A DNA stretch of 64,000 nt, taken from positions 15,972 through 79,971 of the forward strand of contig CAZOBP010000002.1 of the NCBI GenBank assembly GCA_964577995.1. Reading direction: 5' to 3'. The notes below the pieces were generated by a model, which was not told where the DNA came from, did not search any database, and was given only the letters and a program-made list of their open reading frames with translations. Source of the stretch: an uncultured Anaerolineales bacterium (GTDB taxonomy: Bacteria; Chloroflexota; Anaerolineae; UBA7937; B3-Chlor). A program made the position numbers and the translations under genes. This document shows positions 8,579 through 27,917 of this stretch, one piece after another (the first letter of the stretch is position 1; the number at the start of each line of letters is the position of its first letter).

Positions 8579-9045
8579 CATAGTCACGGCCAGGGTACCG
8601 GGGCTCAACTACCCTACAATCGCCCGCCAGCACCTATCCTCTGTCTGGTCATGGTTTCATCCAGTTTCATCCACCCGAAGCCCGGTCATTTGCCGTTCTG
8701 CTGACCTCGGGTCCCGGCAGCGCGGTTGATGGTCCGCAGGCCAGTGCTAGACCCCGGTTGCGCCTGCATCGAGCAGTCCTCTGACCTGTAGCCGCCACTG
8801 TCACGGCCACCGAGATGGTCGTTTCGCGAAGTCGCCTGCCAGTCGTGCTTGTGCCGCTTCGCTATCTCCTGACCTCTCGTGTCTAGGTCATTCCCCCCGC
8901 TGTCTGGGCTTGCCCGTGGGCAATCACAGGGCCTCTCTGCAATCCTGGGGTGCCAGTGATCAGGCGTGGTGTGCAGGGGTGAGTGGTTTCCGATGTGAGT
9001 GAAGCGGTCAATGATGGTCCGGGGACAGAGCCGGGTCCGGGGAGT

Positions 9046-9744
9046 CTAGGGCGCCTTCTCGAAGCGGTAGCCCACGCCTATCTCGGTCTGGATGTACCTG
9101 GGGTTCTTGGGGTCCTGCTCCAACTTCTGCCGGAGATGCCAGACATAGACCCGCACGTAGTCCAGATCGTCTTGGTACTCCCACCCCCAGACGTTCTGGA
9201 GGATTTGCGTGAAGGTGAGGACCTGACCCGCATTCTGGACGAGGTAGGCCAATAGACGGTACTCGGTGGCCGTGAGCTTCACCTGTTCTCCCCCTACGGT
9301 CACGCGACGCTCCTTGAGATCGATGGTGAGGAAGTCGTCTGCGTAGGTGGTAGGCTCAGCGTACTCAGCGGGGGGCAGGGCAGCTCGACGGAGGACTGCT
9401 CGAGCATGAGCGAGCAGGACCTTGATGCTGAAGGGCTTGGTGAGGTAGTCGTCGGCCCCGTACTCCAGGCCGCGGACGATGTCTTCGTCCTGTCCGCGCG
9501 CGGTGAGCATCACAATGGGGGCATCCGAAACTTCTCGAATGCGCCGGCAGGTCTCCCATCCATCCATGCGGGGCATCATGATATCCAGAATGACCAGGTC
9601 TGGCTTGTGAGCGAAGAACTCCCTCAAAGCCTCCTTGCCGTCGCAGGCCGTGAGAACCTCGTAACCTTCCCGGGCAAAGGTGTATTCGATCAGAGGGAGC
9701 AGTGCAGGATCGTCGTCGACGACCAGGACTCTCTTTTGTTCCAT
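9046..9744 (-). CDS. OmpR-family response regulator
   Basis: REC domain (VLVVDDDP, LDIMMPRMDG, LTKPF) plus a winged-helix output (TEYRLLAYL, GVGYRF). The likely start is the ATG at 9744. Confidence 0.9.
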   Translation of the reverse strand: MEQKRVLVVDDDPALLPLIEYTFAREGYEVLTACDGKEALREFFAHKPDLVILDIMMPRMDGWETCRRIREVSDAPIVMLTARGQDEDIVRGLEYGADDYLTKPFSIKVLLAHARAVLRRAALPPAEYAEPTTYADDFLTIDLKERRVTVGGEQVKLTATEYRLLAYLVQNAGQVLTFTQILQNVWGWEYQDDLDYVRVYVWHLRQKLEQDPKNPRYIQTEIGVGYRFEKAP

Positions 9745-10091
9745 CCGCTGGGCCGCACCTCGGTGGTACACTCAGTGACTAGTGCTAATCATACTGCAAC
9801 TGGCCCTTGAGGGCAAAGACCACACAGTGAGGTCAGCGTCGTGCTGTGGTTCTTGGCGCGCCGCGTTTGTCCAGAGGTGGTCGCAGATCGTGCCCCTGGG
9901 GCTAGCTGGTGCAAAGCTGAGTCTTGCCCGTGGAACGACCTGTCTCCGGCGTCCTGGTTGGTGCGCGCCACGTGGTTTGCGAGGGAGCAGGACGGCTTGC
10001 GACCCTCCTGCATGACATGGCAAAGTGAGGTGGGAAGGCGAGGGTCGTGGGCGCGGTCGCCAGAGTTCGACAACAGAGTACTTTTTTCCCA

Positions 10092-10121
10092 TTGACGCAG
10101 ATACTATCAATCCAGTATAAT
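10092..10121 (+). promoter_or_regulatory. Sigma70-like promoter TTGACG-18nt-TATAAT
   Basis: TTGACG at 10092-10097 and TATAAT at 10116-10121, in a locally AT-rich patch about 40 nt upstream of the riboswitch aptamer. Confidence 0.55.
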
Positions 10122-10163
10122 TGGGTCAGAACCTAGTCAAACGATACATCGCGTGCTGGATCA

Positions 10164-10263
10164 CAGCGATAAAGGCAAACCCATCGAAAGGTGGGGACGC
10201 AAAGCCATGGATCTAAGGCTCCGGGAGGGGCGATGATCGCCAGGCTGCCGAAAGTGACCGCTG
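10164..10263 (+). promoter_or_regulatory. c-di-GMP-I (GEMM-I) riboswitch aptamer
   Basis: AAAGGCAAACCCAUCGAAAGGUGGGGACGCAAAGCC matches the GEMM-I core: GCAAAC, a GAAA tetraloop hairpin and GGGACGCAAAGCC. The second arm has a CUAAG tetraloop-receptor-like element. A closing helix pairs CAGCG (10164-68) with CGCUG (10259-63). Confidence 0.8.
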
Positions 10264-10291
10264 CACACCGCGGACGTTCTTCCACTGATCG

Positions 10292-10318
10292 ACGCCTGGC
10301 GTGAGCCAGGCGTTTTTC
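10292..10318 (+). terminator. Intrinsic terminator forming the riboswitch expression platform
   Basis: ACGCCTGGC-GTGA-GCCAGGCGT followed by TTTTT. GCCAGGC also occurs inside the aptamer (10239-45) and could pair with 10294-10300 instead. Confidence 0.75.
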
Positions 10319-10448
10319 TATCTCCATCGCCCAGGTACCAAGGACCCTGGCAGGAATCGGGTCTTTTCGTTGGCGAAATCAGGATTCTCCCGATACACAG
10401 CCTGGCCAAGACTGGGTATTCTAGAAAGTGAGATGGGGAGGGCATAGT

Positions 10449-10649
10449 GTGAGGAACCGAAAGGAGAGGTTGCTCAGGGCTAAGGAAGCAGCCGAGTACC
10501 TCGGAGTGAGCCTTGTAACCCTGCGTAGGATGGAGAAGCAGGGCGCGCTCTCACCCTATCGTACGCCGGGAGGACACCGTAGATACAGCATAGAGATGCT
10601 TGAGGAGTACCTGGAGAGTTCTCGAAGATTCTCAGGCGCGACTCAATAG
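10449..10649 (+). CDS. Small HTH DNA-binding protein (excisionase/MerR-type HTH_17-like)
   Basis: LLRAKEAAEYLGVSLVTLRRMEKQGALSPYRTPGGHRRY is a typical excisionase-family HTH. GTG 10449 follows GGGGAGGG; GTG 10428 is an alternative start. Confidence 0.7.
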   Translation: MRNRKERLLRAKEAAEYLGVSLVTLRRMEKQGALSPYRTPGGHRRYSIEMLEEYLESSRRFSGATQ

Positions 10650-10944
10650 CAGGCCACGGCCGGTGATTCGGTTGGGATCATTCCTCACACCCAGGTCGTG
10701 GAGCGCGAACTGCGGAGTTGTCCCGCCGGCGGCGGATAGCACAGACTCGATGCCGATTGTATGGGGTGAGCGGGGAGTTTGCGATGACCATGACGAGCAG
10801 TACGATCACTGTGGCCAGGAACGAATACTGGTGTTCGCTGTGTAGCATGGGTGAGCAGACAGATAGCGTGCCCTGAAAACGTTGGGACTACGGGCTAGCT
10901 ACCTGGTTCTTCACAAGGACCGGAGGGTGATGAGGCGCTAAACG

Positions 10945-12146
10945 ATGACTCAGAGCAAGGTTCTCATAGTTGATGATGATAGGCTGACCCTGACCATAGT
11001 GGCAGATACGCTGCGAGAGGCTGGGTTGGTGGTGGAAACCGCGCAGAACGGTCAAGAAGCACTGCACAAGCTAGCGGATTCAACCCTGACCTGATCGTCC
11101 TGGACGTGGTCATGCCCGACTTGGACGGCTACGAGGTCGCTCGTCGGTTGCGACAGGATCCCGCTTGGGCGCTGATTCCCATCATCATGCTCACCACCAA
11201 GGGTGGTATCGCCGACAAGGTGACTGCTTTCCAGGCAGGGGCAGACGATTACCTGACCAAGCCTTTCGATCCGGTCGAACTCGAGGTGAGGGTCAAGGCG
11301 CATCTGGCAAGGACCCGAGCAGCGCTGGGTGTACAGCGCACCAAGCCCAGAGGCAAGGTCATCACGCTATTCAGCCTGCGAGGCGGAGCGGGCGTGACGT
11401 CCCTGGCGGTCAATCTCGCCGCAGCACTAGCTCAATTGTGGCAGGTGGAGGTACCTCTGCTCGATCTGGCTCTGGAATCCGGTCATGCAGCCCTGATGCT
11501 TGACGTGAGGCCCAAATACACGCTGGCAGAACTGGCGCGGAAGTCGCTGGCCGATGTCGAGTTTGGCCTCTTGGCTGGCTATCTGGCGGACCACGAGTCC
11601 GGAGTGAGAGTCCTGGCGGCGCCCAGAAGTGCGGAAGAGGCTGGCCTGGTGACGCCATCCCTGGTGGACAAGATCCTTTCCCTACTCAGGGAGCGGTTCG
11701 AGTACCTGGTCATAGATACTCCGTCGGCCTTCACCGAAGTCACTCTGGCGACGCTCGATGCTTCCGATCTGATCATCCTGGTGGTCACGCCGGAGATCGC
11801 GGGAGTGAAGGTGATGGTGAACACACTAGATATCTTCGCGTCACTGGGCTACCCCGAGGAGCGGCTACTGGCGGTCGTCAACCACAACCTGCCAAAGGGA
11901 GCACTACCCACGGAGAACATTCAGGCTTCTCTGCGTATACCAGTGATGGACGGTGTGCCGTATGACAGCGGGGCGTTCGTGCAAGGCATTAACAAAGGTG
12001 TGCCCTTCGTGTTGAGCGGGACTTCGAGCGACGCAGCCAGGGTGGTAGCGCGCCTGGCGTACCAAGTGAGCAAGCCGGAGATGCAGCAGAGCAGGCCCGA
12101 ATCGCCCTCACCTTTGCTGCAGAGCGTCCGGCGGACTCTGAAGTGA
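10945..12146 (+). pseudogene. TadZ/CpaE-like protein (receiver domain + ParA/MinD-type ATPase) with a 1-nt frameshift inside the receiver domain
   Basis: ATG 10945 gives MTQSKVLIVDDD...EALHKLADS and then stops at 11092. The frame of ORF 11106..12146 already reads NPDLIVLDVVMPDLDG from 11082. The C-terminal part has FSLRGGAGVTSLAVNLA (deviant Walker A) and LVIDTP. Confidence 0.75.
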
Positions 12147-12156
12147 GGCAAGAAGG

Positions 12157-13383
12157 ATGAACTGTCCAGAATGCGGGGAAGAACTTGTGGGCAATGAGGC
12201 GGTATGTCCTCATTGTCTGACCCGATTGGCTGTCCTGGAGCAGCAAGGGGAAGCCAACTCGGTTGTGTCGGAAAGTCCCGTGGGTCCGGTGCTGCTGCGA
12301 CCGCTGGGCAAGCGGTTCTCCGCACCTTCTGTCCCAAAGCGCAGGTTGGTGATAGGTGCACTGATACCAGTCGCCCTGATCGTGGTTGCCTCGCTGTGGG
12401 TGACCAGAGCGCAGCGCGACGCGGCGTACTACTTCAATGAGGCCGAGAGGCTCTATGAGGGACGGCAATACGAATCTGCGCTTGTATCCTATCGCAGGGT
12501 GACGGACTTGGAGCCTGAACTTGGTGTGGTCTACGCTCGAATGGGATGGTGCTACTACCACCTGGCGCGCGACGAGGAGTCGGTTCCGCAGTTCCGGAGG
12601 GCCATCGAGCTCGAGCCAGAATTGGCGGAAGCGCACGCGGGCTTGGGTCAGGCCTACTACTACCTGAGGGAGTATCCAGAGGCGGAGAGTGCTCTACGGG
12701 GGGCCATCGAACTGGACAATCGAAGGGCGGAAAGCTATGGCTATCTCGGCTCTGCTCTCTTCTGGCAGGACAGGTATGAAGAGGCGATACAGCCGTTGAC
12801 GGAGGCTACTCGCCTCGATCCATTCGATGCTGACTCTCATGAGTTCCTTGGGCGCTCCTACTTCCTGCTGGGCAGGTACAACGACGCACTGAGCCCTCTG
12901 AGCACGGCCATTGGACTCGATGCTGATGACGTTGACGTGACGCGAGCTCTGGCACAAACCTACTACGAGTTGGGACGGTACGAGCAGGCCGGCCCCTACT
13001 TCTTGGATTTGCTAGCCTACGAACCAGACGACCCAGAGCTCTATCTACTGCTAGGTCGCTCCTTGTACGAGGATGGAGACTATGGTCAGGCCATCGCCCA
13101 GTTGAACGTAGCTCTGGACAAACTGAGCGTGGGCCTCGTGGCGCCAGCAAGCTACCGTTATCTGGGCTGGTCCTATTATGAACTCGAGCGGTACCAAGAG
13201 GCGATCTATCTCTTTGAGCGGTCGCTGATCTTCGAAGCGGAACAGGCGGACACCTACAGTGGCCTCGGCTGGTGCTATCAACGTCTGGACAGATGCGAGG
13301 AGGCAGTGCCCATGTTCGAGCGGGCACTGGAGCTGGATCACACCCTACAGACAGCTAGAGGAGGTCTCGATGCGTGCCGGTAG
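12157..13383 (+). CDS. Zinc-ribbon / single-TM / TPR-repeat protein
   Basis: N-terminal CPECG...CPHC, one hydrophobic helix (LVIGALIPVALIVVASLWV), then about 8 TPR-like repeats (A..Y...G.Y.EA...). Confidence 0.8.
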   Translation: MNCPECGEELVGNEAVCPHCLTRLAVLEQQGEANSVVSESPVGPVLLRPLGKRFSAPSVPKRRLVIGALIPVALIVVASLWVTRAQRDAAYYFNEAERLYEGRQYESALVSYRRVTDLEPELGVVYARMGWCYYHLARDEESVPQFRRAIELEPELAEAHAGLGQAYYYLREYPEAESALRGAIELDNRRAESYGYLGSALFWQDRYEEAIQPLTEATRLDPFDADSHEFLGRSYFLLGRYNDALSPLSTAIGLDADDVDVTRALAQTYYELGRYEQAGPYFLDLLAYEPDDPELYLLLGRSLYEDGDYGQAIAQLNVALDKLSVGLVAPASYRYLGWSYYELERYQEAIYLFERSLIFEAEQADTYSGLGWCYQRLDRCEEAVPMFERALELDHTLQTARGGLDACR

Positions 13384-14035
13384 GTTGTACTCAGTTGGTG
13401 CGTCAGGAAGTGAGGCGGAAACGGGGCAGGGCCTGGTCGAGTACGCGCTGATCGTGGCCCTGGTGGCCCTAGTCGTCAGCGCTGTGCTGATTGCCCTGGG
13501 ACCAGCGATTGGCGACGCCTTCAGAGCTGTCCAGGACAGGATGCGCGAGCTTGGTGCCGGTGCAGCGACTCCCGTCGCCACCAGCGAGCCAGGTGTTACA
13601 GTTACCCCAGGTCCTGCTGAGGTCGTCATCGACCCCTCCTGTTCCTGCTTTGACTGCAAGGGTTCATCGAAGGGAAAGCCCTCTGAACGCACCCCCGAGG
13701 AGGAGCATATATGCTTCACCAACCGAGAAGCATACGCGGTGGACATGACAGGGTGGACGGTGACGGATGCGGTGAATCACCGCTACACCTTCCCGCGTTT
13801 CCACCTCCAGGCGGGGGCGAGTGTCAAGCTGTATAGTGACAGGGGCGCCGATACGGAGACCGATCTCTACTGGGGAACGGAAGGCAACATCTGGAACGAC
13901 AAGGGCGACACTGCATACCTACGTAATGCAACCGGCGTCCTGGTTGACGAGTACTCGTATGGACGCATGGTACCTCCAGCTGCGACGTTGGTGCCTGATC
14001 CGAGCCCGCCGCCGGTGAGTCCTGTGCTGCCCTAG
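13370..14035 (+). CDS. Flp-type prepilin-like N-terminus fused to a lamin-tail-domain (LTD)-like C-terminus
   Basis: ATG 13370 follows AGAGGAGG. The leader MRAGRLYSVGASGSEAETG precedes QGLVEYALIVALVALVV (a G-x4-EY class III signal), then ...LGPAIGDAFRAV. After a linker comes AVDMTGWTVTD..YTFP..L.AG..V.LYS...IWNDKGDTAYL, which is LTD-like. Confidence 0.6.
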   Translation: MRAGRLYSVGASGSEAETGQGLVEYALIVALVALVVSAVLIALGPAIGDAFRAVQDRMRELGAGAATPVATSEPGVTVTPGPAEVVIDPSCSCFDCKGSSKGKPSERTPEEEHICFTNREAYAVDMTGWTVTDAVNHRYTFPRFHLQAGASVKLYSDRGADTETDLYWGTEGNIWNDKGDTAYLRNATGVLVDEYSYGRMVPPAATLVPDPSPPPVSPVLP

Positions 14036-14211
14036 CTAGGGGTGATGGTGGTCAAAAGGTGCACGCTGAAGAAGACTGTGGCAATCTATTGGCGGTTGTG
14101 CAGGAAAGCGGGGGGCAGGCAGCCCGACCGCGCTTGGATACCGTGACAAACTCGATCTCCGTGCGTAGAGAAGTGGCAATTCCGGAAGCAGGCGCCCTTG
14201 AATCGGCCGGC

Positions 14212-14985
14212 ATGCGCGCTGCCCGGGTGGCAGATTGCACCGGTGGCATGGAGACCGGTCAGTCATTGGTCGAGTATTGCCTGTTATTGCTTCTGGTAGC
14301 GATCATCGTGCTGGGGGGCGTGTGGCTGGTAGGAATGCGGGTGTCGAGAGCGTACGGGAGAGTGACCACGAACATCGGCGAGTCCGAGGAGGTGCCCACG
14401 CCCGTGCCCACAGCCACGCCCGAGGAGGGTAGTTCATCCTGGCAGGAGTGGCAAGAAGCGGCTGGCAGCGGGTGGCGTGCGGAGACGACGCGGTACTGTG
14501 TGGATCAGCAGGGTGAGCACAGATCGTTCTACGGCGCTGAGAACTGGACGGACTACATCATTCGAGTGAAGGCCAATCTCTATCAAGGGGAGGGCTATGG
14601 CGTGTTCTTCAGGGCCGTCGATGTGAGTCACGTCAGCGGCTATGTGTTCCAGTATGAGCCTACCTGTAGGTATCTGGGCCGAGAAGGATGTTTCAGTCTC
14701 CGAAAGGTTGTCGGCGGCCGTGTTGAGTACCCGTTCGCCCGAAGCAGCGTGCCGTCTGACTACGAATGGTACAACGCTCCAAGAGACATCGAAGTGCAAG
14801 TGGAGGGTAGCTCTTTCAGAGCCTTCATCGACGGCGAGGAGGTATTGATGGGGACGGATGGTGAGTACACCCACGGTCAGGTGGGTCTACGCACCTGGGA
14901 CGCATCGGAAGTCTGCTTCTGGGAGTTCACGATCACTTTCCTCGAGCAGCCGGATCGGGATCGTGACGATCGGGATGGACAGTAG
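14212..14985 (+). CDS. Flp-type prepilin-like N-terminus fused to a ConA-like/DUF1080-like beta-sandwich domain
   Basis: MRAARVADCTGGMETG precedes QSLVEYCLLLLLVAIIVL (G-x4-EY). After a P/T/E linker come WTDYIIRVKA, GYGVFFRA, GYVFQY and GQVGLRTW, as in 3-keto-disaccharide-hydrolase/LamG-like domains. The start could be ATG 14248. Confidence 0.55.
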   Translation: MRAARVADCTGGMETGQSLVEYCLLLLLVAIIVLGGVWLVGMRVSRAYGRVTTNIGESEEVPTPVPTATPEEGSSSWQEWQEAAGSGWRAETTRYCVDQQGEHRSFYGAENWTDYIIRVKANLYQGEGYGVFFRAVDVSHVSGYVFQYEPTCRYLGREGCFSLRKVVGGRVEYPFARSSVPSDYEWYNAPRDIEVQVEGSSFRAFIDGEEVLMGTDGEYTHGQVGLRTWDASEVCFWEFTITFLEQPDRDRDDRDGQ

Positions 14986-15080
14986 AAGGGAGGAGACCCG
15001 GTCAACTGATCGCGCATTGATGGAGGGCAGTGCTTGAGCGGCGTATGTATGGGTGCAGGGTGATCACTCTGCGAGAATGA

Positions 15081-15470
15081 ATGGCTGGTGATGAGATGGA
15101 CGTAGCGAAATACAAGGACTTGTATCTCACCGAGGCTTACGCACAGGTCGCTGTGATGGAAGAGGGGGTTGCGGCGCTTGGGGACTCTCCGGCAGACTCT
15201 GAACTCCTGTCGAGCATCAGTCGCGCTGCCCACACGTTGAAGGGTATGTCTGCGACGATGGGGTATGAGAAACTGGCTCGGCTAGCCGGCGGAGTGGAGA
15301 GACTGATGGACTCGAACACACTCCGGAGCGTAGCCGGTACGTCTGAGCTCGGTGATCTGCTGACTGACTGCATCGAAACACTTCGCCTACTCTTAGGGCA
15401 GGTTGTCGACGGGAGCGCCTGCGAAGTCGAGTTGGACGCCTTACTGCGGCGGATGGAGCTTCTTGCCTAG
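15081..15470 (+). CDS. Stand-alone Hpt (histidine phosphotransfer) domain protein
   Basis: AAHTLKGMSATMGYEKLARLA is the HxLKG Hpt signature. The size is about 125 aa. Confidence 0.75.
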   Translation: MAGDEMDVAKYKDLYLTEAYAQVAVMEEGVAALGDSPADSELLSSISRAAHTLKGMSATMGYEKLARLAGGVERLMDSNTLRSVAGTSELGDLLTDCIETLRLLLGQVVDGSACEVELDALLRRMELLA

Positions 15471-15528
15471 CAAGAACGACTATGCTGATCTGCTTCGAGT
15501 CACCAGTCGAACAGGAGGGAGGGGGAGC

Positions 15529-15909
15529 GTGGTAAGAATACTGTTGGTCGAGGACGAGGCAAGCCTTCGGCGCTTGATCGAGTATGCACTTCAAACCAGG
15601 GGGTATGAAGTGGTCGTGGCTGCCGACGGGCGCCAGGGACTGGACAAGGCACGATCTGAATCGCCGGATCTCATTCTCCTCGACATGGTCATGCCGGAAA
15701 TGGGCGGAATGGAGGTCCTCAGCGCGTTGAAGAAGGATGCGCGTTTGAAGGACATTCCGGTGCTGATTGTGACTGCCAGTGCGCAGAAAGGGGATGCGGA
15801 GAAGGCCATGGGTATGGGCGCGGCAGGCTATCTGACCAAGCCTTTCCACGTGCCCACTCTGTACGACAGAGTTGAAGAACTCCTGTCCGGTGTAGCCGAG
15901 AAAGGTTAG
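15529..15909 (+). CDS. Single-domain CheY-like response regulator
   Basis: GTG 15529 follows GGAGGGAGGGGGAG, with ILLVEDE, LILLDMVMPEMGG and YLTKPF. Confidence 0.9.
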   Translation: MVRILLVEDEASLRRLIEYALQTRGYEVVVAADGRQGLDKARSESPDLILLDMVMPEMGGMEVLSALKKDARLKDIPVLIVTASAQKGDAEKAMGMGAAGYLTKPFHVPTLYDRVEELLSGVAEKG

Positions 15910-15924
15910 AGGGGATGAGAGTAG

Positions 15925-16320
15925 ATGGGCAGAATCCTTGTGGTGGATGATTCTCCATTCATGGTGCGCCTCGTAACGTACATGCTGGAGTCCGCAGGCC
16001 ATGAGACGGCGAGCGCTGAGAACGGGAAAGTCGCGCTTGGCCTTATGGCCGAGGAGGTCCCGGACCTGGTGTTCCTTGACAGCATGATGCCCGAGATGGA
16101 CGGTTTGGAGACGCTGCGCGCAATCAGAGCGAACCCCAACACCATGGACGTGCCGGTCCTCATGCTGACGGCCAAGGCCCAGGACGACGACTACCTGGCT
16201 GCCAGGGAGGCGGGCGCCAATGGGTACCTGACCAAGCCGTTCAACCGGGCTGACGTGTTGGACAGCGTGGCTCGGTGCCTGGGTCCCGGATCTGAAGGAG
16301 CGGACGAGGAAGATGAGTGA
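15925..16320 (+). CDS. Single-domain CheY-like response regulator
   Basis: ILVVDDSP, VFLDSMMPEMDG and YLTKPF. The stop overlaps the start of the next gene. Confidence 0.9.
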   Translation: MGRILVVDDSPFMVRLVTYMLESAGHETASAENGKVALGLMAEEVPDLVFLDSMMPEMDGLETLRAIRANPNTMDVPVLMLTAKAQDDDYLAAREAGANGYLTKPFNRADVLDSVARCLGPGSEGADEEDE

Positions 16321-17146
16321 GAGTCCCGGTGCCAGAGAGGAAGTAGTCCGGCTGAAGTGGTACGTCGTGGCTGCCACCGTCGCTCTCATTACCCTCTTGG
16401 AGGTGTTCTATCTGACGGTGGTGGAAGTGCCACCGGTGGAGTGTCTGATCCAGTGGATAGTGGTTACGGGTTTGGCCCTGGCACTCATCCACTTCACGTT
16501 CACGATGGCGCTCAGGGAGCATGACCGCGTCGAACAACAGGCGCGGCAACTAGCAAGGCCGCTTGCGGAGGGCGAGAAAGACCGGGATGCCATCAGACGC
16601 CTGGCGTATCACGACGAACTGACCGGTTTGCCCAACCGTGCGCTGTTCTAAGATCGACTGGAGGTGGCGACATCTCGTGCGCGACGCAACGGTTCCAAGC
16701 TTGTGGTGATGTTGATGGACTTGGATCGGTTCAAGGAGATCAACGACACACTTGGGCATGCGGCGGGGGATCGCTTGCTACAGAGGGTTGGGGAGCGGCT
16801 GACGGCCACTGTGCGGAAGAGCGATACCGTATGTCGGATGGGTGGCGATGAGTTCCTCTTGCTCTTCCCTGACCCGGACCGCTCGGAGGAGGCGGACGTA
16901 ATCGCCGATAAGGTTCTGACAGCGATCAGGGACCCTATTGGTGTGGGTGATCTGCAACTACAGATCACCACCAGCCTTGGCGCAGCGCTGTACCCAGATC
17001 ATGGCATAGATTGTGATACTCTCATTAGCAGCGCTGACATCGCCATGTACCATGTCAAGGATAATGGGCGAGACGGCTATCAGTGGCATGCTCCAACGCA
17101 GAAGAGGGGGCAGCTTCCTGGTCCGGATCTCGCGGCCGGGAGGTGA
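16313..17146 (+). pseudogene. Membrane-anchored GGDEF diguanylate cyclase interrupted by one in-frame TAA (16649-16651)
   Basis: ORFs 16313..16651 and 16664..17146 share a frame. The read is ...DELTGLPNRALF*DRLEVA...LMDLDRFKEINDTLGHAAGD...RKSDTVCRMGGDEFLL. Two N-terminal TM helices are present, and the GGDEF and RxxD I-site motifs are intact. Confidence 0.75.
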
Positions 17147-17151
17147 GAGCT

Positions 17152-20100
17152 GTGACAGACGAGCGCATGACCAGGGAGCAGTTGATGGGCGAGGTGCTCG
17201 AGCTACGGCACAAAGTCGCCGAACTGGAGTCATTGGAGCAGGGGGGGAGGAGGGCCGAGGAGGAGGCCCGCAAGGAGCGGGACAAGACCCAGAAATACCT
17301 CGACGTCGCAGGGGTGATCTTCGTGGTCATCGGCGTAAACGAAGAGGTGGAGCTTGTCAACAAGCAGGGCTGTGAGGTTCTGGGGTACGACGAGCATGAG
17401 ATCGTCGGCCGGAACTGGTTCGAGACGTTTCTCCCGGCCCGAGTCAGGGATGACGTGCGGGCGGTTTTCACCTCACTGATGAACGGCGCTCTCGAGCCGG
17501 CCGAACGTTATGAGAATCCCATCCTGGCCAAGGCCGGGGAGGAGCGCACCATCGTCTGGCACAATACTGTTCTCACGGACGAAACAGGTGTCATTGTCGG
17601 GGCTATCTCGTCAGGGCAGGACATTACTGAGCGCAGGCAGGCGGAAAAGGCCTTACGAGAGAGTGAGAGGAGCTTCAGGGCACTGGCCGACAATGCCAGT
17701 GATGGTATTCTCATCGGGACGAGTAGTGGTCTACACATATACGCCAATCGACGGGCAGCAGAGATCACAGGCTACGAAGCGGATGAGTTGGTGGATATGG
17801 GGATTCGAGATCTCGTCCATCCCGATGAGCTGTCGACGGTTCTCGAGACCTACAGGAAGCGATTGGAGGGCCAATCGGCTCCGCGCCACTACGAGACGCG
17901 CTTTGTGCGGAACGACGGGACGACGGTGGCGGTGGAGTTGGCGGGTGCGAAGACCGTCTGGCAGGGACTGCCCGCCGACCTAGTTCTCTTTCGCGACATA
18001 GCCGAGCGCAAGCAGGCCGAGACCGAACTCAGAGATTCCGAGGAGCGACTCAGAACACTGTTCGAGTCCGCGCCCGTGGCCTACTACCTGAATGATCTGC
18101 GAGGGACATTCCTCGACGGCAATAGAGCTGCGGAGCAACTGTTCGGCTACGCACGGGAGGAGTTGGTCGGAAGCAGCCTCCTGGAGCTGAGACTGCTCTC
18201 CGCAGACCAGCTTCCTCGCTCCTCTGCTCTCCTGGCCAGAAGTGCTATGGGTGACGCTACCGGCCCCGATGAGTTCGTGCTGAACCGCAGAGACGGCACG
18301 GAGGTCGCCATGGAGATAAGCACATACCCGGTCAAGTTGAAGGGCGACTCTGTGATCCTCGGTATTGCCAGGGACATCACCCAGAGTAAAGATGCTGAAG
18401 AGGCGCTGAGGGAGAACGAACAGCGCTATCGCGGGTTGTTCGAGAACTCTCCCATCGCCCTCTGGGAGGAGGATGCCTCGGAAGTCAAGAGATACATAGA
18501 TGAACTGCGTGCCTCGGGTGTCAAGGACTACAGGAGCTACTTTGGCAGTCACCCAGGGGCCGTTCGCGAGTGCACGGGATTGGTCAGAATACTCGACGTG
18601 AATCAGGCTACCCTGGACTTGTACGGGGCAGAGAGTAAGGAGGAACTGCTGGCAGGTCTGGACCAGGTACTCGCCGAAGGCTCGTATGACATCTTCAAGG
18701 AGGAAGTGCTTGCCATCGCCGAAGGCAGAACCCAATTCGATGCTGAGACGAGAGCGCGAACTCTCTCGGGCGAGGCCCGGGATATTGCCTTGAGATGGAC
18801 GGTGGCCCCTGGCTGCGAGGAGACCTTCTCGAGCGTGTTGGTCTCAGACATAGATGTCACTGAGCGCACAAGGGCGGAAAGGGAGATCAGGCATCGCACG
18901 AGCCAGTTGACTCTTGTCAACAAAGTGGGGCAAAGGCTGGCTCCCATCCTGGAGTCTGTCCAGCTCTACACGATGGTGGTCCAGGCTGTCCAGGAGGAGT
19001 TCGGCTACCAGATGGTCGGCTTCTTCTTGGTGAGAGGCGACGAGTTGGTCGTGGAGGCGGCGGCTGGACCCTTTAAGGAATCCATCCCGGTGGGGCACAG
19101 TCAGAAGATAGGCGAAGGCACCCTGGGCTGGGTGGCCGAGCACGGAAAGCCGTTGCTGGTCAACGATGCAAGCGAGGAATCTCGCTTCTTGGAGGTGGAG
19201 ACACTAGACATCGCAGCCGAGCTGGACGTGCCCGTGACTGTCGCTGGTCAGACGATAGGCGTGATAGCGGTCGCGAGTGACTCTGCCAACGTCTTTTCCG
19301 AGACGGACGTCACGGCCATGGAGGCGATAGCCGGTCAGGTTGCCCGCGCCATCGAGAACTCCCGGCTGTACGAGCAGGAGCGGCGTCGCGGGATTCAGAG
19401 AGAGACGATCGCCGAAGTGGGGCGGGCGATCGCCGCTATTCTGGACATGGACACTCTGCTCTCACGGGTTGTGGAACTGGTGGCACAGAACTTCGGATAC
19501 TATGCAGTGAATGTGTTCGAGGTCGATGCAGCGTCTGAATACGCTGCCTTCAGAGCCTCAACGGTGGAATCCGAGGGCAGCGGGCGGGAAGGTCTCCGGC
19601 TCAGAGTAGGTGAGGAGGGGATTGTGGGATGGGTAGCCGGCAGTGGGCAACCGCTGATGGTCGATGACGTCAGTCGCGAGCCCCGTTTCCGATTCGACCC
19701 GGCGGTTGCTGACACACGTTCAGAGGTGGCGGTACCCATCAGGCTTGGAGACAAGGTCGTCGGCGTGTTGGACGTGCTCAGTGATGAGGTAGATGCCTTC
19801 GACGAGAGCGTTTTGGGGACCCTGGAAACTCTGGCGCACTCACTGGCCGTGGCCATGGAGAACGCCCGCCTGTATGAGGAGGAGAGGAGACGATCTGAGG
19901 AACTATCGGCGCTCCTGGATACGGCGCAAGCCCTGGCCTCGTCGCTGGACTTGGAGGAGGTTTTGGAGATCGTAGCGCGCCAGGTGAAGGCACTGACCCA
20001 AGCGGACGGTGGTCGTATCTACTTGTTGGAGCCCGATGGGCAGACGCTACGGCCCCTTGTGGCGCTGGGGGTGGAGGCGGAAGAGATGATGGCCTTCTCC

Positions 20101-21504
20101 TTTGGCATTGGGCAGGGCATTACTGGCCAAGTGGCTGCCACAGGGAATGCAGAGGTGGTGAATGATGTCCATAGGGATCCGAGAGGCTTGCACATCCCCG
20201 GGACCACACAAGAACCGATGTCTATGCTGTGTGTGCCACTTGCCATCAAGGGGGATGTGGCAGGAGTGATGGCAGTGTCTAGGTTCGGAGAGCGGCCCTT
20301 CGATGACCAGGATCTCCAGTTGGCGATCAGCATGGCGAGCCATGCGGCGACCGCCATCGAGAACTCCCGGCTCTATCAATCGGTTGCTGACAGAGAGACC
20401 AAACTCCGGGACCAGATCGAATCTGCCGCCGATGCCATCTTCAATCTGGATCCCCAGGGGAGGTTAACGCTCTTCAACGGGGAGGCGGAGAGGCTCTCTG
20501 GCTTCAGGCGCGATGAGGTATTGGGATACCACTACACTCAGATGCTGTGGCCGGAGCAGACCGAGCAGATGCGCAGTCTGCTGTCGCCCGATGTCGGTGG
20601 GGAAGTATTACAGCAAGCCTATGAGATCGATTTCCTCGACAAGTGGGGACAGCGGGTTCCTATGGAGATCCGCGTCAGCGCTCTCGAGCGTGCAGGACGT
20701 CTGGAGGGCTGGCAAGTCATCGGTCGGGATGTCAGCGAGCGACGGCGTCTTGAGGAGATGAAGAGCCAGTTCCTGGCTACCGTGTCGCATGATTTGAGAA
20801 CGCCCTTGGCATCAATCATGGGTTTCACCGAGATGCTTGTGGAGGGAAGCCCCGGTCCCTTGACAGAGATACAGGATGAGTTCCTCGGGATAGTCTTCGA
20901 GAACTCCCAGCGCCTGATGGCTCTGGTCAACGATCTCCTGGACATCTCCAAGTTGGAGGTTGGGCGGACCAGCCTGGTGGTGAAGACCATAGAGTTGCCG
21001 CGCCTGATCGCTGGTGTGATTGACGAGATGAGCCCGCTGACCTACAGGAAGAACATCTCGCTCGAGGTAGACTGTGCAGAGACGCTGCCCCCGACACAAG
21101 GCGATCAAAGGCGACTGGAGCAGGTCCTCAACAACCTGCTTTCCAACGCAGTGAAGTTCACGCCTGAGGGAGGAAGGGTGGAAGTCAAGGCGGAGCTGGA
21201 AGGGGAGCAGTTGGTGGTCACCGTGAGAGACACGGGTCTCGGCATACCTCCGGACGATCTGCCCCATCTGTTTCAGCCGTTTCACCGAGGTGGGAATGTG
21301 ACCGAGCAGGCTATCGAGGGGACGGGTCTGGGCCTGAGCATTGCCAAGGCTTTGGTCGAGGCGCACGGTGGCGACATGGGAGTGGAGAGCGAGTTGGGCA
21401 AAGGTAGCACGTTCTGGTTCACGTTACCTGTCAAGGAACCTGCGCTGTCTGAGCCAGTCCAGACCGATGGAGGACCGGATCTGGGATCGTTGCCACGTGG
21501 TTGA
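17152..21504 (+). CDS. Large multi-PAS/multi-GAF sensor histidine kinase
   Basis: Coiled-coil N-terminus, repeated PAS blocks, three GAF-like blocks, H-box SHDLRTPL and HATPase boxes [27 protein letters not shown] 17152 follows GGGAGGTGAGAG. There is no receiver domain. Confidence 0.9.
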
Positions 21505-21654
21505 CAGGTGGGAATGGGTTTTTGAGGGAGTTGCTGGGCAAGCTATCTCCTCGCCGACGGCGGAGAACGGACCCTGGCGTGGTCCACTTCCCACTCTGGG
21601 TGCGCCGGGTGCCAGGCTCCATGATCCGCTCGCAGTGTCTTGAAGGGGCCTTGC

Positions 21655-21682
21655 TTGCAATGGGGGCATACCTGGGTATAAT
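21655..21682 (+). promoter_or_regulatory. Sigma70-like promoter TTGCAA-16nt-TATAAT
   Basis: TTGCAA at 21655-60 and TATAAT at 21677-82, 64 nt upstream of the ferredoxin ATG. Confidence 0.5.
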
Positions 21683-21685
21683 TAG

Positions 21686-22015
<330 letters not shown>

Positions 22016-22063
22016 GGAGCTTCCTGCGATCGCAGACGGTGTCCTCTAGACCAATTGCCGAAG

Positions 22064-22116
22064 AAAAAGCCCGGGAAACGGGAGTGTCCGTACTCCCTCC
22101 CACCCAGGCTTTTTTG
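22064..22116. terminator. Bidirectional intrinsic terminator between convergent genes
   Basis: AAAAAGCCCGGG...(inner hairpin CGGGAGT-GTCCGT-ACTCCC)...CCCAGGCTTTTTT, with an A-tract 5' and a T-tract 3'. Confidence 0.65.
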
Positions 22117-22260
22117 CTGTCCGCCACCCGCTTGGTGTTGGCCTCTCCCGACGTCAGGCGGCCACACCTGCGCACGCGGAACGGCTTCCGAGTGCCTGGC
22201 GAGTGGTTCTCTCTGGCCCAGAGTGGCGAGAAGTGATGCCGAGGCTTAGCACGCTGGTGG

Positions 22261-22446
22261 TCACACGAAGGCGTTGATCAGCAGAACGAGAGGCGTCTCG
22301 AGTGGCGCCGGCGTTGGTGTGGGTGGAGTCGGTGAGGGCATGGCGGTCAGCACATAGCCTATGGCCATGCTTATGACCACCAGGAGACTTAAGATGATGA
22401 AGAGGATCTGACTGGTTCGGGGTTTCTGCGATCGTTTTCGAGCCAA
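22261..22446 (-). CDS. Small membrane protein (61 aa), function unknown
   Basis: TTG start 5 nt after GGGAGGAG. The protein has a basic N-terminus, one TM helix (ILFIILSLLVVISMAIGYVL) and a Pro/Thr-rich tail. A TTGCAT-17-TACAAT promoter-like pair lies on the minus strand at 22505-22477. Confidence 0.45.
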   Translation of the reverse strand: MARKRSQKPRTSQILFIILSLLVVISMAIGYVLTAMPSPTPPTPTPAPLETPLVLLINAFV

Positions 22447-22723
22447 CTGCTCCTCCCTTGACAGGACTTCTGCTTTATTGTAAGACAGTTATCGCCGGGA
22501 TGCAAAGTGACATGGTCGAACGAGCAGCCGGAGCATGTCCAGGTTCCGGGGTAGGTGGATCGGGAGGGGCGGTCCTGGGAGAGGGAGGTAGGGGCAGACC
22601 CTGTATCTCGGTCGCCGCATCTCGAGGCGGAGACGGGCACTCAGCTGCTGGAACAGGGTGTCGAGATCTGGCACGCCCGCCATCGGGAGTCGTCTTGATT
22701 GGGCAGCAGCGTGCGTCCCTTGC

Positions 22724-22752
22724 TTGACTTTGGGACCTAGCGATGGTAAGAT
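22724..22752 (+). promoter_or_regulatory. Sigma70-like promoter TTGACT-17nt-TAAGAT
   Basis: TTGACT at 22724-29 and TAAGAT at 22747-52, upstream of the GAF kinase gene. Confidence 0.45.
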
Positions 22753-22805
22753 GCGACGCGTGCCTCCAGGTCGTGCTCGGCGACACAGACTAGCGCGAGG
22801 CTTGT

Positions 22806-25145: not shown

Positions 25146-25186
25146 CGCTCATCCGTCAGACTAAAATGTAAGGAGAATGGAGAATC

Positions 25187-26434
25187 ATGGATAAGCTGAA
25201 CCCGTTCGAGATCGCGCAGAGGCAGCTAGATGAAGCTGCGGAGATCCTGGGCCTCGACCCAGGGATGCATGCCCTTCTGCGAGAGCCGCTGCGGGAGCTG
25301 CACGTGACCCTCCCGGTCAGGATGGACGATGGTTCCGTGGAGGTCTTCAAAGGCTTCCGTGTACAGTACAACGACGCCCGCGGCCCAGCCAAGGGCGGCC
25401 TGCGCTTTCATCCGGAGGAGACCATTGACACTGTGCGGGCTTTGGCCGCCTGGATGACCTGGAAGACTGCGGTGGTGGACATACCGCTGGGAGGCGGCAA
25501 AGGGGGAATAATCTGCAACCCCAAGGAGATGTCTCAGGCTGAGTTGGAGCGACTGAGCAGGGCGTACATTCGGCAAGTGGGTCGCATACTGGGACCCAAG
25601 TCAGACGTTCCGGCGCCTGACGTGTATACGAACCCTCAGATCATGGCCTGGATGATGGACGAGTACTCCGTGATGCAGGGGCACAGCGAGCCCGGCGTCA
25701 TTACGGGCAAGCCGTTGGCCCTGGGAGGGTCTGCCGGCCGTATGGATGCCACGGCCAGAGGAGGCATGTATTGTCTGCGTGAAGCAGGCAAGGTGCTGGG
25801 CATCGACTTGAAGGGTGCTACCACTGCCATCCAAGGCTATGGCAACGCTGGCTACTACGGCCAGGTCCTTGGGGAGGAGTTGCTGGGGCTGAATGTCATC
25901 TGCGTGAGCGACTCGAGGGGCGGAATCGTCTGCGACGGTGGCCTGGAGTGCGAAGAGGTCAAGGGCCACAAGGACGAGACCGGTACTTGTGTGGGCCTAC
26001 CCGACTCCGAGCCCATCAGCAACGAGGAGCTGCTGGAGTTGGACGTGGACGTGCTGGTTCCGGCCGCGCTGGAGAACGTCATCACCGAGGAGAACGCTCA
26101 TCGGGTGAAGGCGAAGATCGTGGTCGAACTTGCCAATGGACCTACGACACCGGAAGCCGACAGAATACTCCACGAGAACGGGGTATACGTCATTCCCGAT
26201 TTCCTGTGCAACGCCGGAGGAGTCGTCGTCTCCTACTTCGAGGGAGTGCAGAACGCCTACAACTACTACTGGGACCTCGAGGAGGTTTACGAAAGGCTGG
26301 ATCGGAAGATGACAGCCGCCTTCCACGCGGTGCACGAGATGGCTCAAGCCAAGGGGGTACACAACCGGCTGGCGGCCTATCTGGTGGCAGTGGCCAGGGT
26401 CGCCGACGCCGTGAAACTCCGTGGCTGGGCGTGA
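25187..26434 (+). CDS. gdhA: Glutamate dehydrogenase
   Basis: 415 aa with [16 protein letters not shown] and GYGNAGYY (Glu/Leu/Phe/Val dehydrogenase family). AAGGAGAATGGAG RBS. Confidence 0.95.
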
Positions 26435-26499
26435 ACCATCAGTAGCACCCTGGGGAGGAGGTCGCCGGGCAGCGCCAACTGGAATTGGCGGGATGCGAA

Positions 26500-27207: not shown

Positions 27208-27250
27208 AAGACCCTCCATAGCACGCGCACTGCCATACTTGCATGCGAAG

Positions 27251-27278
27251 AACCCGTGATTTTTCACGGGTTTTTCAT
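27251..27278 (+). terminator. Intrinsic terminator
   Basis: AACCCGTGA-TTTT-TCACGGGTT followed by a T-rich run. Confidence 0.75.
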
Positions 27279-27367
27279 TTCTCTGCCCCTCCCTTTTATG
27301 AGAACTCCACGGATTGTCCGGTAGAATGATACTGGCGCGATGCGTTGTAGCCACGAGACCTTCAGAC

Positions 27368-27384: not shown

Positions 27385-27422
27385 AGCAGCGCTCGGATGG
27401 GGCGGTAACAAGGAGGGGCAAA

Positions 27423-27914: not shown

Positions 27915-27917
27915 CAC

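Follow-up and report, generated by a model that had tools for sequence, protein, structure and literature searches.

A class I c-di-GMP riboswitch with a predicted OFF-type terminator upstream of an excisionase-type regulator gene in an uncultured Anaerolineae bacterium

The stretch of DNA analysed here (the window, 64 kb in length) belongs to an uncultured bacterium of the Anaerolineae (Chloroflexota) and carries an element that, judged from its sequence, is a genuine and canonical class I c-di-GMP riboswitch (GEMM-I). Folding models suggest, with a probability of about two in three, that this element works as a transcriptional OFF switch in a 5' leader, in which high c-di-GMP would stop the expression of a HTH gene and of the cluster behind it. 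A preliminary description of the same DNA had read the region as a complete unit of promoter, c-di-GMP-I aptamer and terminator with competing folds, located 5' of an excisionase-type HTH gene, and this core reading is correct.

The c-di-GMP-I riboswitch family includes thousands of known examples. When the whole 64-kb window was compared with 4227 Rfam families using cmscan, the sole match above gathering was RF01051 (c-di-GMP-I), which extends over 10164-10252 (+), covers model positions 1-87 of 87 and reaches 87.4 bits (E 6.2e-16). The gathering score of this family is 35 bits, so that the score, suggested earlier as a check on the element, is 2.5 times that value. The same aptamer occupies the corresponding position in 11 further, related loci, with scores of 70-89 bits. 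The features of the leader are the following:

10092-10121, + strand: sigma-70-type promoter (TTGACG 10092-97, 18-nt spacer, TATAAT 10116-21), 11 of 12 consensus matches
10161-10257, + strand: c-di-GMP-I (GEMM-I) aptamer including the closing helix P1a, from the RF01051 match and the alignment with 7 relatives
10161-64 with 10254-57, + strand: outer part of P1a, UCAC/GUGA, conserved pairing
10167-68 with 10249-50, + strand: inner part of P1a, CG/CG, conserved pairing
10174, + strand: G equivalent to Vc2 G20, unpaired and directly preceding the 5' hairpin (Rfam alignment)
10175-10200, + strand: 5' hairpin with GAAA loop at 10186-89 (RF01051 alignment)
10203-10246, + strand: 3' hairpin with tetraloop-receptor-like UCUAAG 10212-17 / GAUGA 10232-36 (RF01051 alignment)
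10239-10256, + strand: predicted 5' strand of the antiterminator (minimum-free-energy folds, RNAalifold)
10283-10300, + strand: predicted 3' strand of the antiterminator, CACU 10283-86, UCG 10289-91, C10293 and GCCUGGC 10294-10300 (folds, RNAalifold)
10291-10318, + strand: intrinsic terminator T1, GACGCCUGGC / GUGA loop / GCCAGGCGUU, with U-tract UUUUU at 10314-18 (terminator scan)
10342-10368, + strand: weak terminator-like hairpin T2, GGACCCUGGCAGGAAUCGGGUC + UUUUCGUU (weak scan match, -9.7 kcal/mol)

The TTGACG-18-TATAAT site is the sole strong promoter-like site of the + strand between 9000 and 12000, and it lies exactly where it had been placed, at 10092-10121, with 11 of the 12 consensus positions. 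TTGAC-N18-TATAAT is kept in 8 of the 8 syntenic relatives examined, and the promoter of L056 reads TTGACA-N17-TATATT. Transcription would start near 10128, about 7 nt past the TATAAT. The aptamer is located between this conserved promoter and the HTH gene (10449), on the same strand as both, and T1 starts 34 nt past it.

The GEMM-I hallmarks that had been listed for the aptamer are all found at their positions: GCAAAC (10175-10180), a GAAA-capped hairpin (10180-10195), GGGACGCAAAGCC (10194-10206) and CUAAG (10213-10217). The UCUAAG/GAUGA element agrees with the consensus receptor columns of RF01051, and the linker between both hairpins consists of AA (10201-02) plus the paired A10203. In an alignment with 7 relatives, 98.5% of the 196 aptamer pair cells are paired and the 5' hairpin contains compensatory changes. 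On the other hand, the closing helix proposed in the preliminary description, CAGCG/CGCUG (10164-68 with 10259-63), stands in part: it can form in this sequence, but it is not the conserved closure, being paired in 81.8% of cells in the 7 relatives, broken in L007, L055 and L056, and absent from clade 2, a more distant syntenic clade. The conserved closing helix is UCAC/GUGA plus CG/CG, which is 100% paired in the 7 relatives and shows a compensatory change at 10163:10255 (A-U to G-C) in L055 and L056.

The intrinsic terminator that had been described downstream of the aptamer is borne out as T1 (10291-10318), whose 10-bp stem with 7 G-C pairs folds at -20.3 kcal/mol. As had also been noticed, the heptamer GCCAGGC occurs both at 10239-10245 and at 10305-10311, and its complement lies at 10294-10300. 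The antiterminator extends beyond this heptamer, pairing 10239-10256 with 10283-10300 and thereby taking up the 3' strand of P1a as well; its 5' strand is composed of GCCAGGC 10239-45 (3' strand of the 3' hairpin), 10247-51 (ligand pocket and inner P1a) and AGUG 10253-56 (outer P1a), and 10291-10300 in its 3' strand doubles as the 5' arm of T1. For transcripts ending at 10301 or 10304, before the 3' arm of T1 exists, the minimum-free-energy fold is the antiterminator, which lies 6.0 and 2.6 kcal/mol, respectively, below the aptamer fold without ligand. A ligand with a Kd in the pM-nM range, as reported for c-di-GMP (PMC6140456), is expected to contribute more binding energy than this margin. 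Folded in isolation, the antiterminator has an energy of -27.4 kcal/mol and T1 of -20.3 kcal/mol; when the aptamer is bound, the T1 5' arm has a single alternative partner, which folds at -13.5 kcal/mol.

The same helix recurs in the related leaders. The pairing of 10239-45 with 10294-10300 is kept in 49 of 49 cells in the 7 relatives, and the antiterminator is predicted by their unconstrained RNAalifold consensus. The pair 10245:10294 varies from C-G to U.G and U-A, a covariation that is thin, given that 151 of 500 shuffles do as well and that the relatives are close (mean column identity 85%). In folds of truncated leaders, this antiterminator helix also appears for L050 and L056, and L055 has a covarying variant of it, GCGAUGAU:AUCAUCGC.

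The architecture of an OFF switch is present: the terminator lies clear of the aptamer, and an aptamer strand and the 5' arm of T1 make up the antiterminator. The aptamer ends at 10257 and T1 starts at 10291, so that a bound aptamer would leave T1 free to form; moreover, the antiterminator is built from the 3' strands of P2 and P1a (10239-10256), and therefore ligand binding should free T1. In the mechanism proposed, the RNA started near 10128 would fold its aptamer (10161-10257) into two hairpins docked via the GAAA tetraloop and its receptor and closed by the short P1a, and c-di-GMP would be read by G10174, A10201 and C10248. At low c-di-GMP, 10283-10300 would capture 10239-10256, the antiterminator would hold the 5' arm of T1, and RNA polymerase would read into the HTH_17 gene and probably on into the TadZ-like, Flp-fusion, phosphorelay, GGDEF and histidine-kinase genes. 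At high c-di-GMP, the ligand would lock P1a and P2, no antiterminator would be made, and T1 would fold and stop transcription at its U-tract. Real riboswitches are under kinetic control, and the sign proposed here rests on thermodynamic folds of truncated transcripts. The preliminary description gave no sign for the switch, which is thus an addition to it. Termination-type OFF switches account for 7 of the 7 functional class I riboswitches of C. difficile (PMC6366702).

T1 and its U-tract are kept in L009, L045, L007 and L050, with the 3' arm GCCGGGC in three of these four. In clade 2 (L008, L046, L052-54), T1 is found without a U-tract and the homologue of T2 is a strong terminator, GGACCCUGGCGAACAGGGUC-UUUUUU, the only one there with a U-tract. 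The dominant terminator differs, then, by lineage (T1 in the clade of the window, T2 in clade 2); in the window T2 may act as a back-up terminator. Any single folding model is weakened because the near-palindromic GCCWGGC repeats allow many alternative pairings, which in clade 2 include one with the 5' strand of P2, and the expression platform of that clade differs. A relay model was also considered, in which S1 is GCCAGGC 10239-45, S2 and S3 are the 5' and 3' arms of T1, S4 and S5 are those of T2, and a freed S3 pairs with S4. The complementarity between S3 and S4 is present, yet constrained folding of 10160-10372 did not produce this pairing, and the model was dropped as unsupported. The 130-nt segment from T1 to the start codon gave no sign of a translational layer: its fold z-score is +1.1, it is poorly conserved and its length is variable, and neither sequestration of the Shine-Dalgarno sequence nor a conserved structure is supported there.

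The genes found behind the leader, and the Shine-Dalgarno sequence of the first one, are the following:

10434-41, + strand: Shine-Dalgarno sequence GGGGAGGG of the HTH gene
10449-10649, + strand: HTH_17/excisionase-family (MerR-like, BldC-like) DNA-binding protein, 66 aa, GTG start (PF12728, E 2.9e-13)
10945-12146, + strand: TadZ/CpaE-like gene (receiver plus MinD/ParA-type ATPase domain), disrupted (Pfam Response_reg, AAA_31, ParA)
12157-13383, + strand: TPR protein (Pfam)
13370-14035, + strand: Flp-like prepilin N-terminus fused to a Lamin-tail domain (LTD 69.7 bits)
14059-14985, + strand: Flp-like N-terminus fused to a 3-keto-disaccharide-hydrolase-like domain (3keto-disac_hyd, weak)
15081-15470, + strand: Hpt (Pfam)
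15529-15909 and 15925-16320, + strand: two receiver proteins (Pfam)
16313-17146, + strand: TM-GGDEF diguanylate cyclase gene, interrupted by an in-frame TAA at 16649-51 (Pfam)
17152-21504, + strand: PAS/GAF histidine kinase, 1450 aa (Pfam)

The excisionase-type nature of the first gene, proposed from the sequence, agrees with its HTH_17 match and with TIGR01764 'excise' (43.6 bits, cutoff 28.8); HTH_BldC is below its cutoff. About 650 HTH_17 homologues of this protein were counted. The GTG start is also called by independent metagenome annotations, and the alternative start, TTG at 10470, is CTG in L009. Downstream, the TadZ-type architecture (REC plus MinD/ParA-like) that had been reported was confirmed, with NCBIfam MinD and CpaE_hom_Actino matches below their cutoffs. 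The Flp fusions were likewise recognised as two proteins with Flp-type N-termini (GQGLVEYAL and GQSLVEYCL) on globular domains; the G/xxxxEY motifs of Flp are visible in the translations and the Flp_Fap match, of 23.4 bits, is below cutoff. The terminator scan gave no convincing + strand terminator between 10370 and 21500, and the genes from the HTH gene through the signalling genes (to 21504) are probably co-transcribed. By its predicted domains the locus behind the leader consists mostly of signalling genes, and the scanned ORFs include no Tad assembly genes. Its interpretation as a Tad/Flp pilus locus was rejected, as assembly genes (TadA/CpaF, TadB/TadC, prepilin peptidase) were not found there; Pfam searches of the large ORFs in 17083-36037 and 37028-50163 detected no T2SSE/T2SSF or peptidase A24 genes.

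Two genes of this presumed operon are disrupted in this lineage. In the TadZ-like gene a 1-nt deletion near 11063 leaves a 49-aa fragment (10945-11094, stop included) and an ORF at 11106-12146, as shown by three-frame translation and alignment to the intact L007 and L008 genes, and the same split is called in the independent assemblies L001-L003. In the diguanylate cyclase gene, the in-frame TAA is located inside the start of the GGDEF domain, and the L007 counterpart is an intact 301-aa ORF. Both genes being intact in a relative with a 90%-identical TadZ-like protein, it could be argued that the aptamer binds c-di-GMP while the leader no longer regulates, as a ligand-independent relic before a decaying operon. 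The full-length, ligand-free transcript adds weight to this possibility, as its lowest-energy fold is aptamer plus T1 (-60.5 vs -58.8 kcal/mol); because this minimum already holds T1, the switch could terminate constitutively. Furthermore, Bc1, with its dual terminators, binds the ligand and gives no response (PMC11218506), and 5 of the 16 c-di-GMP riboswitches of C. difficile are non-functional (PMC6366702). Nevertheless, the window has an intact promoter, aptamer, antiterminator and T1 with all ligand-contact bases, which differ very little from those of relatives whose genes are whole, and the first gene (HTH) is intact and highly conserved, all of which makes the loss of regulation an unlikely explanation.

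A slightly less probable reading keeps the same aptamer and reverses the sign: the bound aptamer would free 10264-10290 to sequester the 5' arm of T1, or the effect would be exerted through T2 or on translation, to give an ON switch. When the aptamer is enforced, 10264-10303 can indeed fold into a hairpin that takes in the 5' arm of T1, but this hairpin folds at -13.5 kcal/mol vs -20.3 for T1. c-di-GMP usually up-regulates adhesion and pilus functions, as an ON switch before these genes would also do. ON-type GEMM-I switches exist, such as Bc2 (PMC6366702), and in 78 of the 322 original GEMM examples the terminator overlaps P2 (PMC1950547); such an overlap between terminator and aptamer, the hallmark of the ON design (PMC1950547), is absent for T1. 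Besides, the alternative pairing of the T1 5' arm that is conserved and covaries is with the 3' strand of the aptamer itself, and such a pairing corresponds to OFF logic. The OFF reading consequently remains the preferred one. It may be observed that c-di-GMP as a rule promotes adhesion, and an OFF switch before Flp/Tad-like genes is contrary to this.

As regards the ligand, G10174, A10201 and C10248, which we take to be the counterparts of Vc2 G20, A47 and C92 (the numbering being drawn in part from the Rfam alignment), are invariant in the 7 relatives (alignment A3). The Vc2 residues have known roles in ligand contact, G20 recognising G-alpha of the ligand (PMC6140456, PMC11705072), and GEMM-I members that sense cGAMP have A at the G20 position (PMC6140456). 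It is highly improbable that the element is a GEMM-Ib-type or other variant aptamer sensing 3'3'-cGAMP or another dinucleotide rather than c-di-GMP: position 10174 is G in the window and in all 7 relatives, which agrees with the c-di-GMP pattern proposed earlier and not with the A of GEMM-Ib (PMC6140456). The variant c-di-GMP-I-GGC (RF03167) is the best clan model by E-value for L007, L045, L050 and L056, but the G expected in this variant, as defined by the Rfam consensus, is A in every sequence (GCAAAG, not GCGAAG), cmscan flags a mismatch to the GGC model at that position in L007, and for the window sequence RF01051 out-scores the other clan members. A chance resemblance, with no structured RNA at the locus, has a negligible probability. 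Although fold z-scores of -1.8 and -1.9 do not make the region stand out, the element matches an Rfam covariance model over its full length (E 6e-16), is kept upstream of homologous genes across three genomic contexts and shows compensatory base changes.

Within the Anaerolineae, the riboswitch and the HTH gene occur together in no fewer than three different contexts: the cluster with TadZ-like, Flp-fusion and phosphorelay genes, clusters with KaiC-like ATPases, and a receiver-domain cluster. On the contrary, no c-di-GMP-I match was found at distant TadZ-like loci of KSB1, Chloroflexia and Limnocylindrales (30-32% identity) or on a metagenome contig of 52% identity, so that the riboswitch is not a general feature of TadZ-like genes. 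It is tempting to propose a conserved two-step module in Anaerolineae, in which a c-di-GMP-repressed HTH_17 (BldC-like) factor would head at least three unrelated clusters as the main output of c-di-GMP riboswitches in this class, which is little studied and for the most part uncultured, with negative feedback in the intact operon, where a c-di-GMP OFF switch would control a diguanylate cyclase, and with a hand-over between T1 and T2 among lineages; this generalisation is speculative and, on balance, doubtful. In the literature on c-di-GMP riboswitches, nothing was found in combination with Anaerolineae or excisionase, and with Chloroflexi there were incidental mentions only.

The practical value of these results is a reliable annotation: a 677-nt intergenic region that seemed empty holds a promoter, a putative c-di-GMP sensor and a conditional terminator, and the cluster behind the riboswitch can be labelled as presumably c-di-GMP-controlled in an uncultured Anaerolineae lineage. 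Genetic work on filamentous Chloroflexota, which abound in sediments and anaerobic digesters, is almost non-existent. Should the OFF logic and the riboswitch-HTH module prove true, they would offer a testable entry to the second-messenger control of surface and lifestyle functions in these bacteria, and the intact operon would be a less common case, with an enzyme of c-di-GMP synthesis placed under a c-di-GMP riboswitch; such control is rare (PMC6366702).

The known working of the riboswitch class is left unchanged by the window element, a well-built further example of a known device, and its likenesses to the systems already described are several. With Cd1 (Cdi-1-3) and other class I riboswitches of C. 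difficile it has the aptamer class (GEMM-I/RF01051) in common. In Cd1-type switches the ligand favours an intrinsic terminator in the 5' leader, shutting off a long operon whose early products include a regulator (PMC6366702), and the same mechanism and outcome are predicted for the window. The differences are that C. difficile belongs to the Firmicutes and its operon concerns flagella, whereas the window comes from Anaerolineae (Chloroflexota), and has a HTH_17 regulator with TadZ-like, Flp-fusion and phosphorelay genes.

With Vc2 of Vibrio cholerae the element shares the two-hairpin architecture, the GAAA tetraloop and receptor, the AAA-type linker and the contacts equivalent to G20, A47 and C92 (PMC6140456, PMC11705072), and each lies upstream of a regulator gene. 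Vc2 does not act via transcription termination (PMC6366702), which is predicted for the window, and the P1a of the window, a 2-bp and a 4-bp helix with an internal loop between them, is unlike that of Vc2. In Bc1 of Bacillus thuringiensis, as in the window, a class I aptamer precedes a pair of terminator-like hairpins separated by a few tens of nt, and the dominant terminator varies by condition in Bc1 (PMC11218506) and by lineage here. Bc1 binds c-di-GMP yet does not regulate (PMC11218506): c-di-GMP unfolds its T1, an ON-type behaviour that is masked by T2, whereas in the window the ligand is predicted to favour T1 and T2 is weak (-9.7 kcal/mol). Finally, in the ON-type GEMM design of Weinberg et al. 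2007 (PMC1950547), a study whose listed gene families include cpaA, GGDEF, PAS and histidine kinase, the switching strand is the 3' side of the second hairpin, as it is in the window. In that design the 5' arm of the terminator overlaps this strand and the ligand prevents termination, whereas in the window the arm is complementary to it, so that the predicted logic is inverted.

A scan of the entire 64 kb on both strands against 4227 Rfam families returned a single match above the gathering threshold, RF01051 at 10164-10252 (+), at 87.4 bits (threshold 35, E-value 6.2e-16). The match spans the complete 87-position model, was reproduced with permissive filters and places the leader element in the c-di-GMP-I riboswitch class, as the preliminary description had proposed, and it passes the threshold check suggested there; all the sequence-testable defining features of RF01051 are present. 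The promoter, the four aptamer motifs, the intrinsic terminator and the excisionase-type first gene of that description were all recovered, and the leader is organised as follows:

10092-10121 (+): promoter, TTGACG (10092-10097), 18-nt spacer and TATAAT (10116-10121), read directly from the sequence
10161-64 with 10254-57 (+): UCAC/GUGA, outer part of the aptamer closing helix P1a, beyond a small internal loop
10167-68 with 10249-50 (+): CG/CG, inner part of P1a, directly below the ligand pocket
10175-80 (+): GCAAAC, read directly
10180-95 (+): GAAA-capped hairpin, read directly
10194-10206 (+): GGGACGCAAAGCC, read directly
10213-17 (+): CUAAG, read directly
10291-10318 (+): first terminator hairpin T1, GACGCCUGGC-GUGA-GCCAGGCGUU with a U-run, from the terminator scan
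10342-10368 (+): second terminator-like hairpin T2, weak, with UUUUCGUU, from the terminator scan and folding
from 10449 (+): HTH_17 gene (PF12728, TIGR01764), 66 aa, GTG start, Shine-Dalgarno GGGGAGGG

The promoter is the sole site matching 11 of 12 consensus positions in a scan of 9000-12000, and TTGAC-N18-TATAAT is kept in every syntenic locus with sufficient upstream sequence; a c-di-GMP-I aptamer occupies the same position in every syntenic locus. G10174 (unpaired, immediately 5' of the first hairpin), A10201 (the first linker A) and C10248 (the first C 3' of the second hairpin), which we take to be the equivalents of G20, A47 and C92 of the Vibrio cholerae reference Vc2, are invariant across seven distinct related leaders; the G previously assigned to the G20 position stands. 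Among the ligand contacts, G20 recognises one guanine and C92 pairs with the other, and in cGAMP-sensing relatives A replaces G20 (PMC6140456; PMC11705072). For some relatives the variant model c-di-GMP-I-GGC scored best; this assignment was rejected, the variant-defining position carrying the canonical A, and the top score is probably due only to the inclusion of the closing stem in that model.

The closure first proposed, CAGCG/CGCUG (10164-68 with 10259-63), appears in a fold of the window fragment by itself, yet it is not conserved: 81.8% of cells are paired, it is broken in the related locus L007 and in the non-syntenic loci L055 and L056, and its 3' strand is deleted in a second syntenic clade (L008, L046, L052-54). 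The conserved closure is P1a, with CG/CG and UCAC/GUGA paired in 7/7 sequences and an A-U pair replaced by G-C in L055 and L056, and the aptamer therefore comprises 10161-10257.

The heptamer GCCAGGC is present twice (10239-45 and 10305-11) and its first copy pairs with 10294-10300 in the folds, as had been noted. When transcripts are cut at 10301 or 10304, before the 3' arm of T1 has been made, the minimum free energy fold is an antiterminator formed by 10239-45/10294-10300, G10247/C10293, 10249-51/10289-91 and 10253-56/10283-86. Three aptamer segments, namely the 3' sides of the second hairpin and of P1a and the strand of the pocket, are taken up by this structure, which is thus mutually exclusive with ligand binding. 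The aptamer, antiterminator and terminator folds had been described as mutually exclusive; the aptamer, which ends at 10257, and T1, which starts at 10291, are compatible, and T1 is free to form beside a ligand-locked aptamer.

The antiterminator is ahead of the ligand-free aptamer fold by 6.0 kcal/mol (to 10301) and 2.6 kcal/mol (to 10304), a margin that would be small relative to the free energy of a ligand bound in the pM-nM range (PMC6140456). As isolated helices, the antiterminator and T1 reach -27.4 and -20.3 kcal/mol, respectively, and with the aptamer enforced the sole other partner open to the T1 5' arm folds at -13.5 kcal/mol. Helix 10239-45:10294-300 is paired in 49/49 cells of seven relatives, one pair appearing as C-G, U.G and U-A, and unconstrained RNAalifold on the same alignment gives the antiterminator and not the second hairpin with T1. 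Truncated leaders of L050 (another relative) and L056 adopt the same fold, and that of L055 a covarying variant, GCGAUGAU:AUCAUCGC, which likewise consumes the 3' strand of P1a. Taken together, these thermodynamic and comparative data argue for an OFF switch, i.e. c-di-GMP-induced termination, with a probability of about two in three. The relatives are close, and 151/500 shuffles matched the covariation of the antiterminator; besides, the full-length transcript without ligand already has aptamer plus T1 as its marginally best fold, and the repeated near-palindrome GCCWGGC permits alternative pairings. In the antiterminated RNAalifold structure GAUCA 10159-10163 (P1a 5' strand) pairs with UGAUC 10234-10238, high on the 3' side of the second hairpin. 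All seven relatives retain these pairs, two of them with G.U in place of A-U, and the interaction may be a second stabiliser of the ligand-free state.

In the second syntenic clade T1 has no U-tract and the T2 homologue is a strong terminator, GGACCCUGGCGAACAGGGUC-U6; the working terminator of the tandem pair has therefore been swapped within the family, which recalls the dual-terminator platform of Bc1 from B. thuringiensis (PMC11218506). A relay model joining T1 and T2 in the window was unsupported by constrained folding.

The HTH protein matches PF12728 (E 2.9e-13) and, above cutoff, TIGR01764 ('excise'), and its resemblance to BldC is sub-threshold; a TTG at 10470 that also resembles a start codon is CTG in the related locus L009. 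The TadZ-like gene and Flp fusions reported earlier were also found, in this order:

10945-12146: TadZ/CpaE-architecture gene (receiver and MinD/ParA-type), after a gap of 296 nt
next: TPR protein gene
13370-14035: Flp-type prepilin N-terminus with lamin-tail domain (…ETGQGLVEYALIVALV…)
14059-14985: Flp-type prepilin N-terminus with 3-keto-disaccharide-hydrolase/DUF1080-like domain (…METGQSLVEYCLLLLLV…)
next: Hpt protein and two receiver proteins
16313-17146: membrane GGDEF protein gene
last: PAS/GAF histidine kinase, 1450 aa

Flp pilins normally have 50-80 aa, and the large globular C-terminal domains of the two adjacent fusions are unusual. No convincing + strand terminator was found in 10370-21500, so co-transcription of the cluster is plausible, though unproven. 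TadA/CpaF, TadB/C and prepilin peptidase genes were absent among the large ORFs scanned (17-50 kb), and 'Tad locus' is therefore an overstatement. Proteins of the cluster have identical copies on metagenome contigs, and the TadZ-like protein matches Anaerolineae/Anaerolineales MAGs (77-93% identity) and further metagenome contigs. On the other side of a common 677-nt intergenic region lies a divergent OmpR/PhoB-type response regulator (9046-9771, -), syntenic in all close relatives together with aldehyde-oxidase, glyoxalase and B12-binding genes further upstream.

Two genes of the predicted operon are disrupted. The TadZ/CpaE-like gene has a 1-nt deletion in its receiver domain near 11063-11064 (GCACT-GCACAAG, against GCACTCGAGAAAG in L007), leaving a 49-aa fragment followed by an ORF of 346 aa; the split is identical in independent assemblies of other samples (L001-L003), the gene is intact (385-400 aa) in L007, L050, L052 and L054, and the lesion is either a real pseudogene or frameshift in the population or a shared assembly error. 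The gene for the membrane-anchored GGDEF diguanylate cyclase carries an in-frame TAA (16649-16651) at the very start of the domain (...LTGLPNRALF*DRLE...), despite which the motif RMGGDEFLL is intact; it is also split in L001, L003, L005 and L006, and the L007 ORF is intact (301 aa).

Homologues of the HTH protein number about 650, most of them from Anaerolineae; eleven were sampled. Besides the syntenic loci, a c-di-GMP-I aptamer precedes the HTH homologue in two further contexts, in front of KaiC-like ATPase genes (L055, 88.6 bits; L063, 52.1 bits, truncated by the contig end) and in front of a receiver-domain cluster (L056); it is absent at sampled homologues adjoining greA, nusG or a pilB(MshEN)/pilC operon. 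This distribution suggests that the pairing is a mobile regulatory unit in Anaerolineae and not a one-off; a limited literature search found no published description of it. The leaders of L055 and L056 are longer than that of the window and show TTGACA-like and TA-rich hexamers between terminator and HTH start (~2085-2125 and ~1215-1255, respectively), which might form a second, riboswitch-independent promoter; none was found in the window by the consensus scan of 9000-12000. In contigs L057 and L058 a c-di-GMP-II-GAG variant (RF03169, 2351-2459, -, 44.3 bits against a gathering threshold of 40) lies in the intergenic region that separates an HTH_17 homologue from a divergent SIS/GAF-domain gene, facing the latter; riboswitches of a second c-di-GMP-related class may thus be used beside the same HTH family. 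In L064 and L065 (3001-6205) an HTH_17 homologue (66% identical) is directly 5' of a pilB-type ATPase gene (MshEN, a known c-di-GMP-binding domain) and pilC, with no riboswitch, and the family appears to adjoin pilus genes in this other arrangement.

The riboswitch of the window belongs to an already known class, in which termination-type OFF switches are well documented (PMC6366702), and the discovery paper already listed GEMM RNAs 5' of pilus (cpaA), GGDEF, PAS and histidine-kinase genes (PMC1950547). Features of modest local interest are the HTH module, the inverted role of the second-hairpin strand, the hand-over of terminators from one lineage to another and, in relatives with intact genes, the predicted riboswitch control of a diguanylate cyclase gene, a kind of control that is uncommon (PMC6366702). 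Many GEMM RNAs have been noted to follow an ON design, in which the 5' arm of the terminator overlaps the second hairpin (PMC1950547); in the window leader this logic would be inverted, and the predicted OFF switch would behave as do the seven functional class I switches of C. difficile, which terminate on ligand (PMC6366702).
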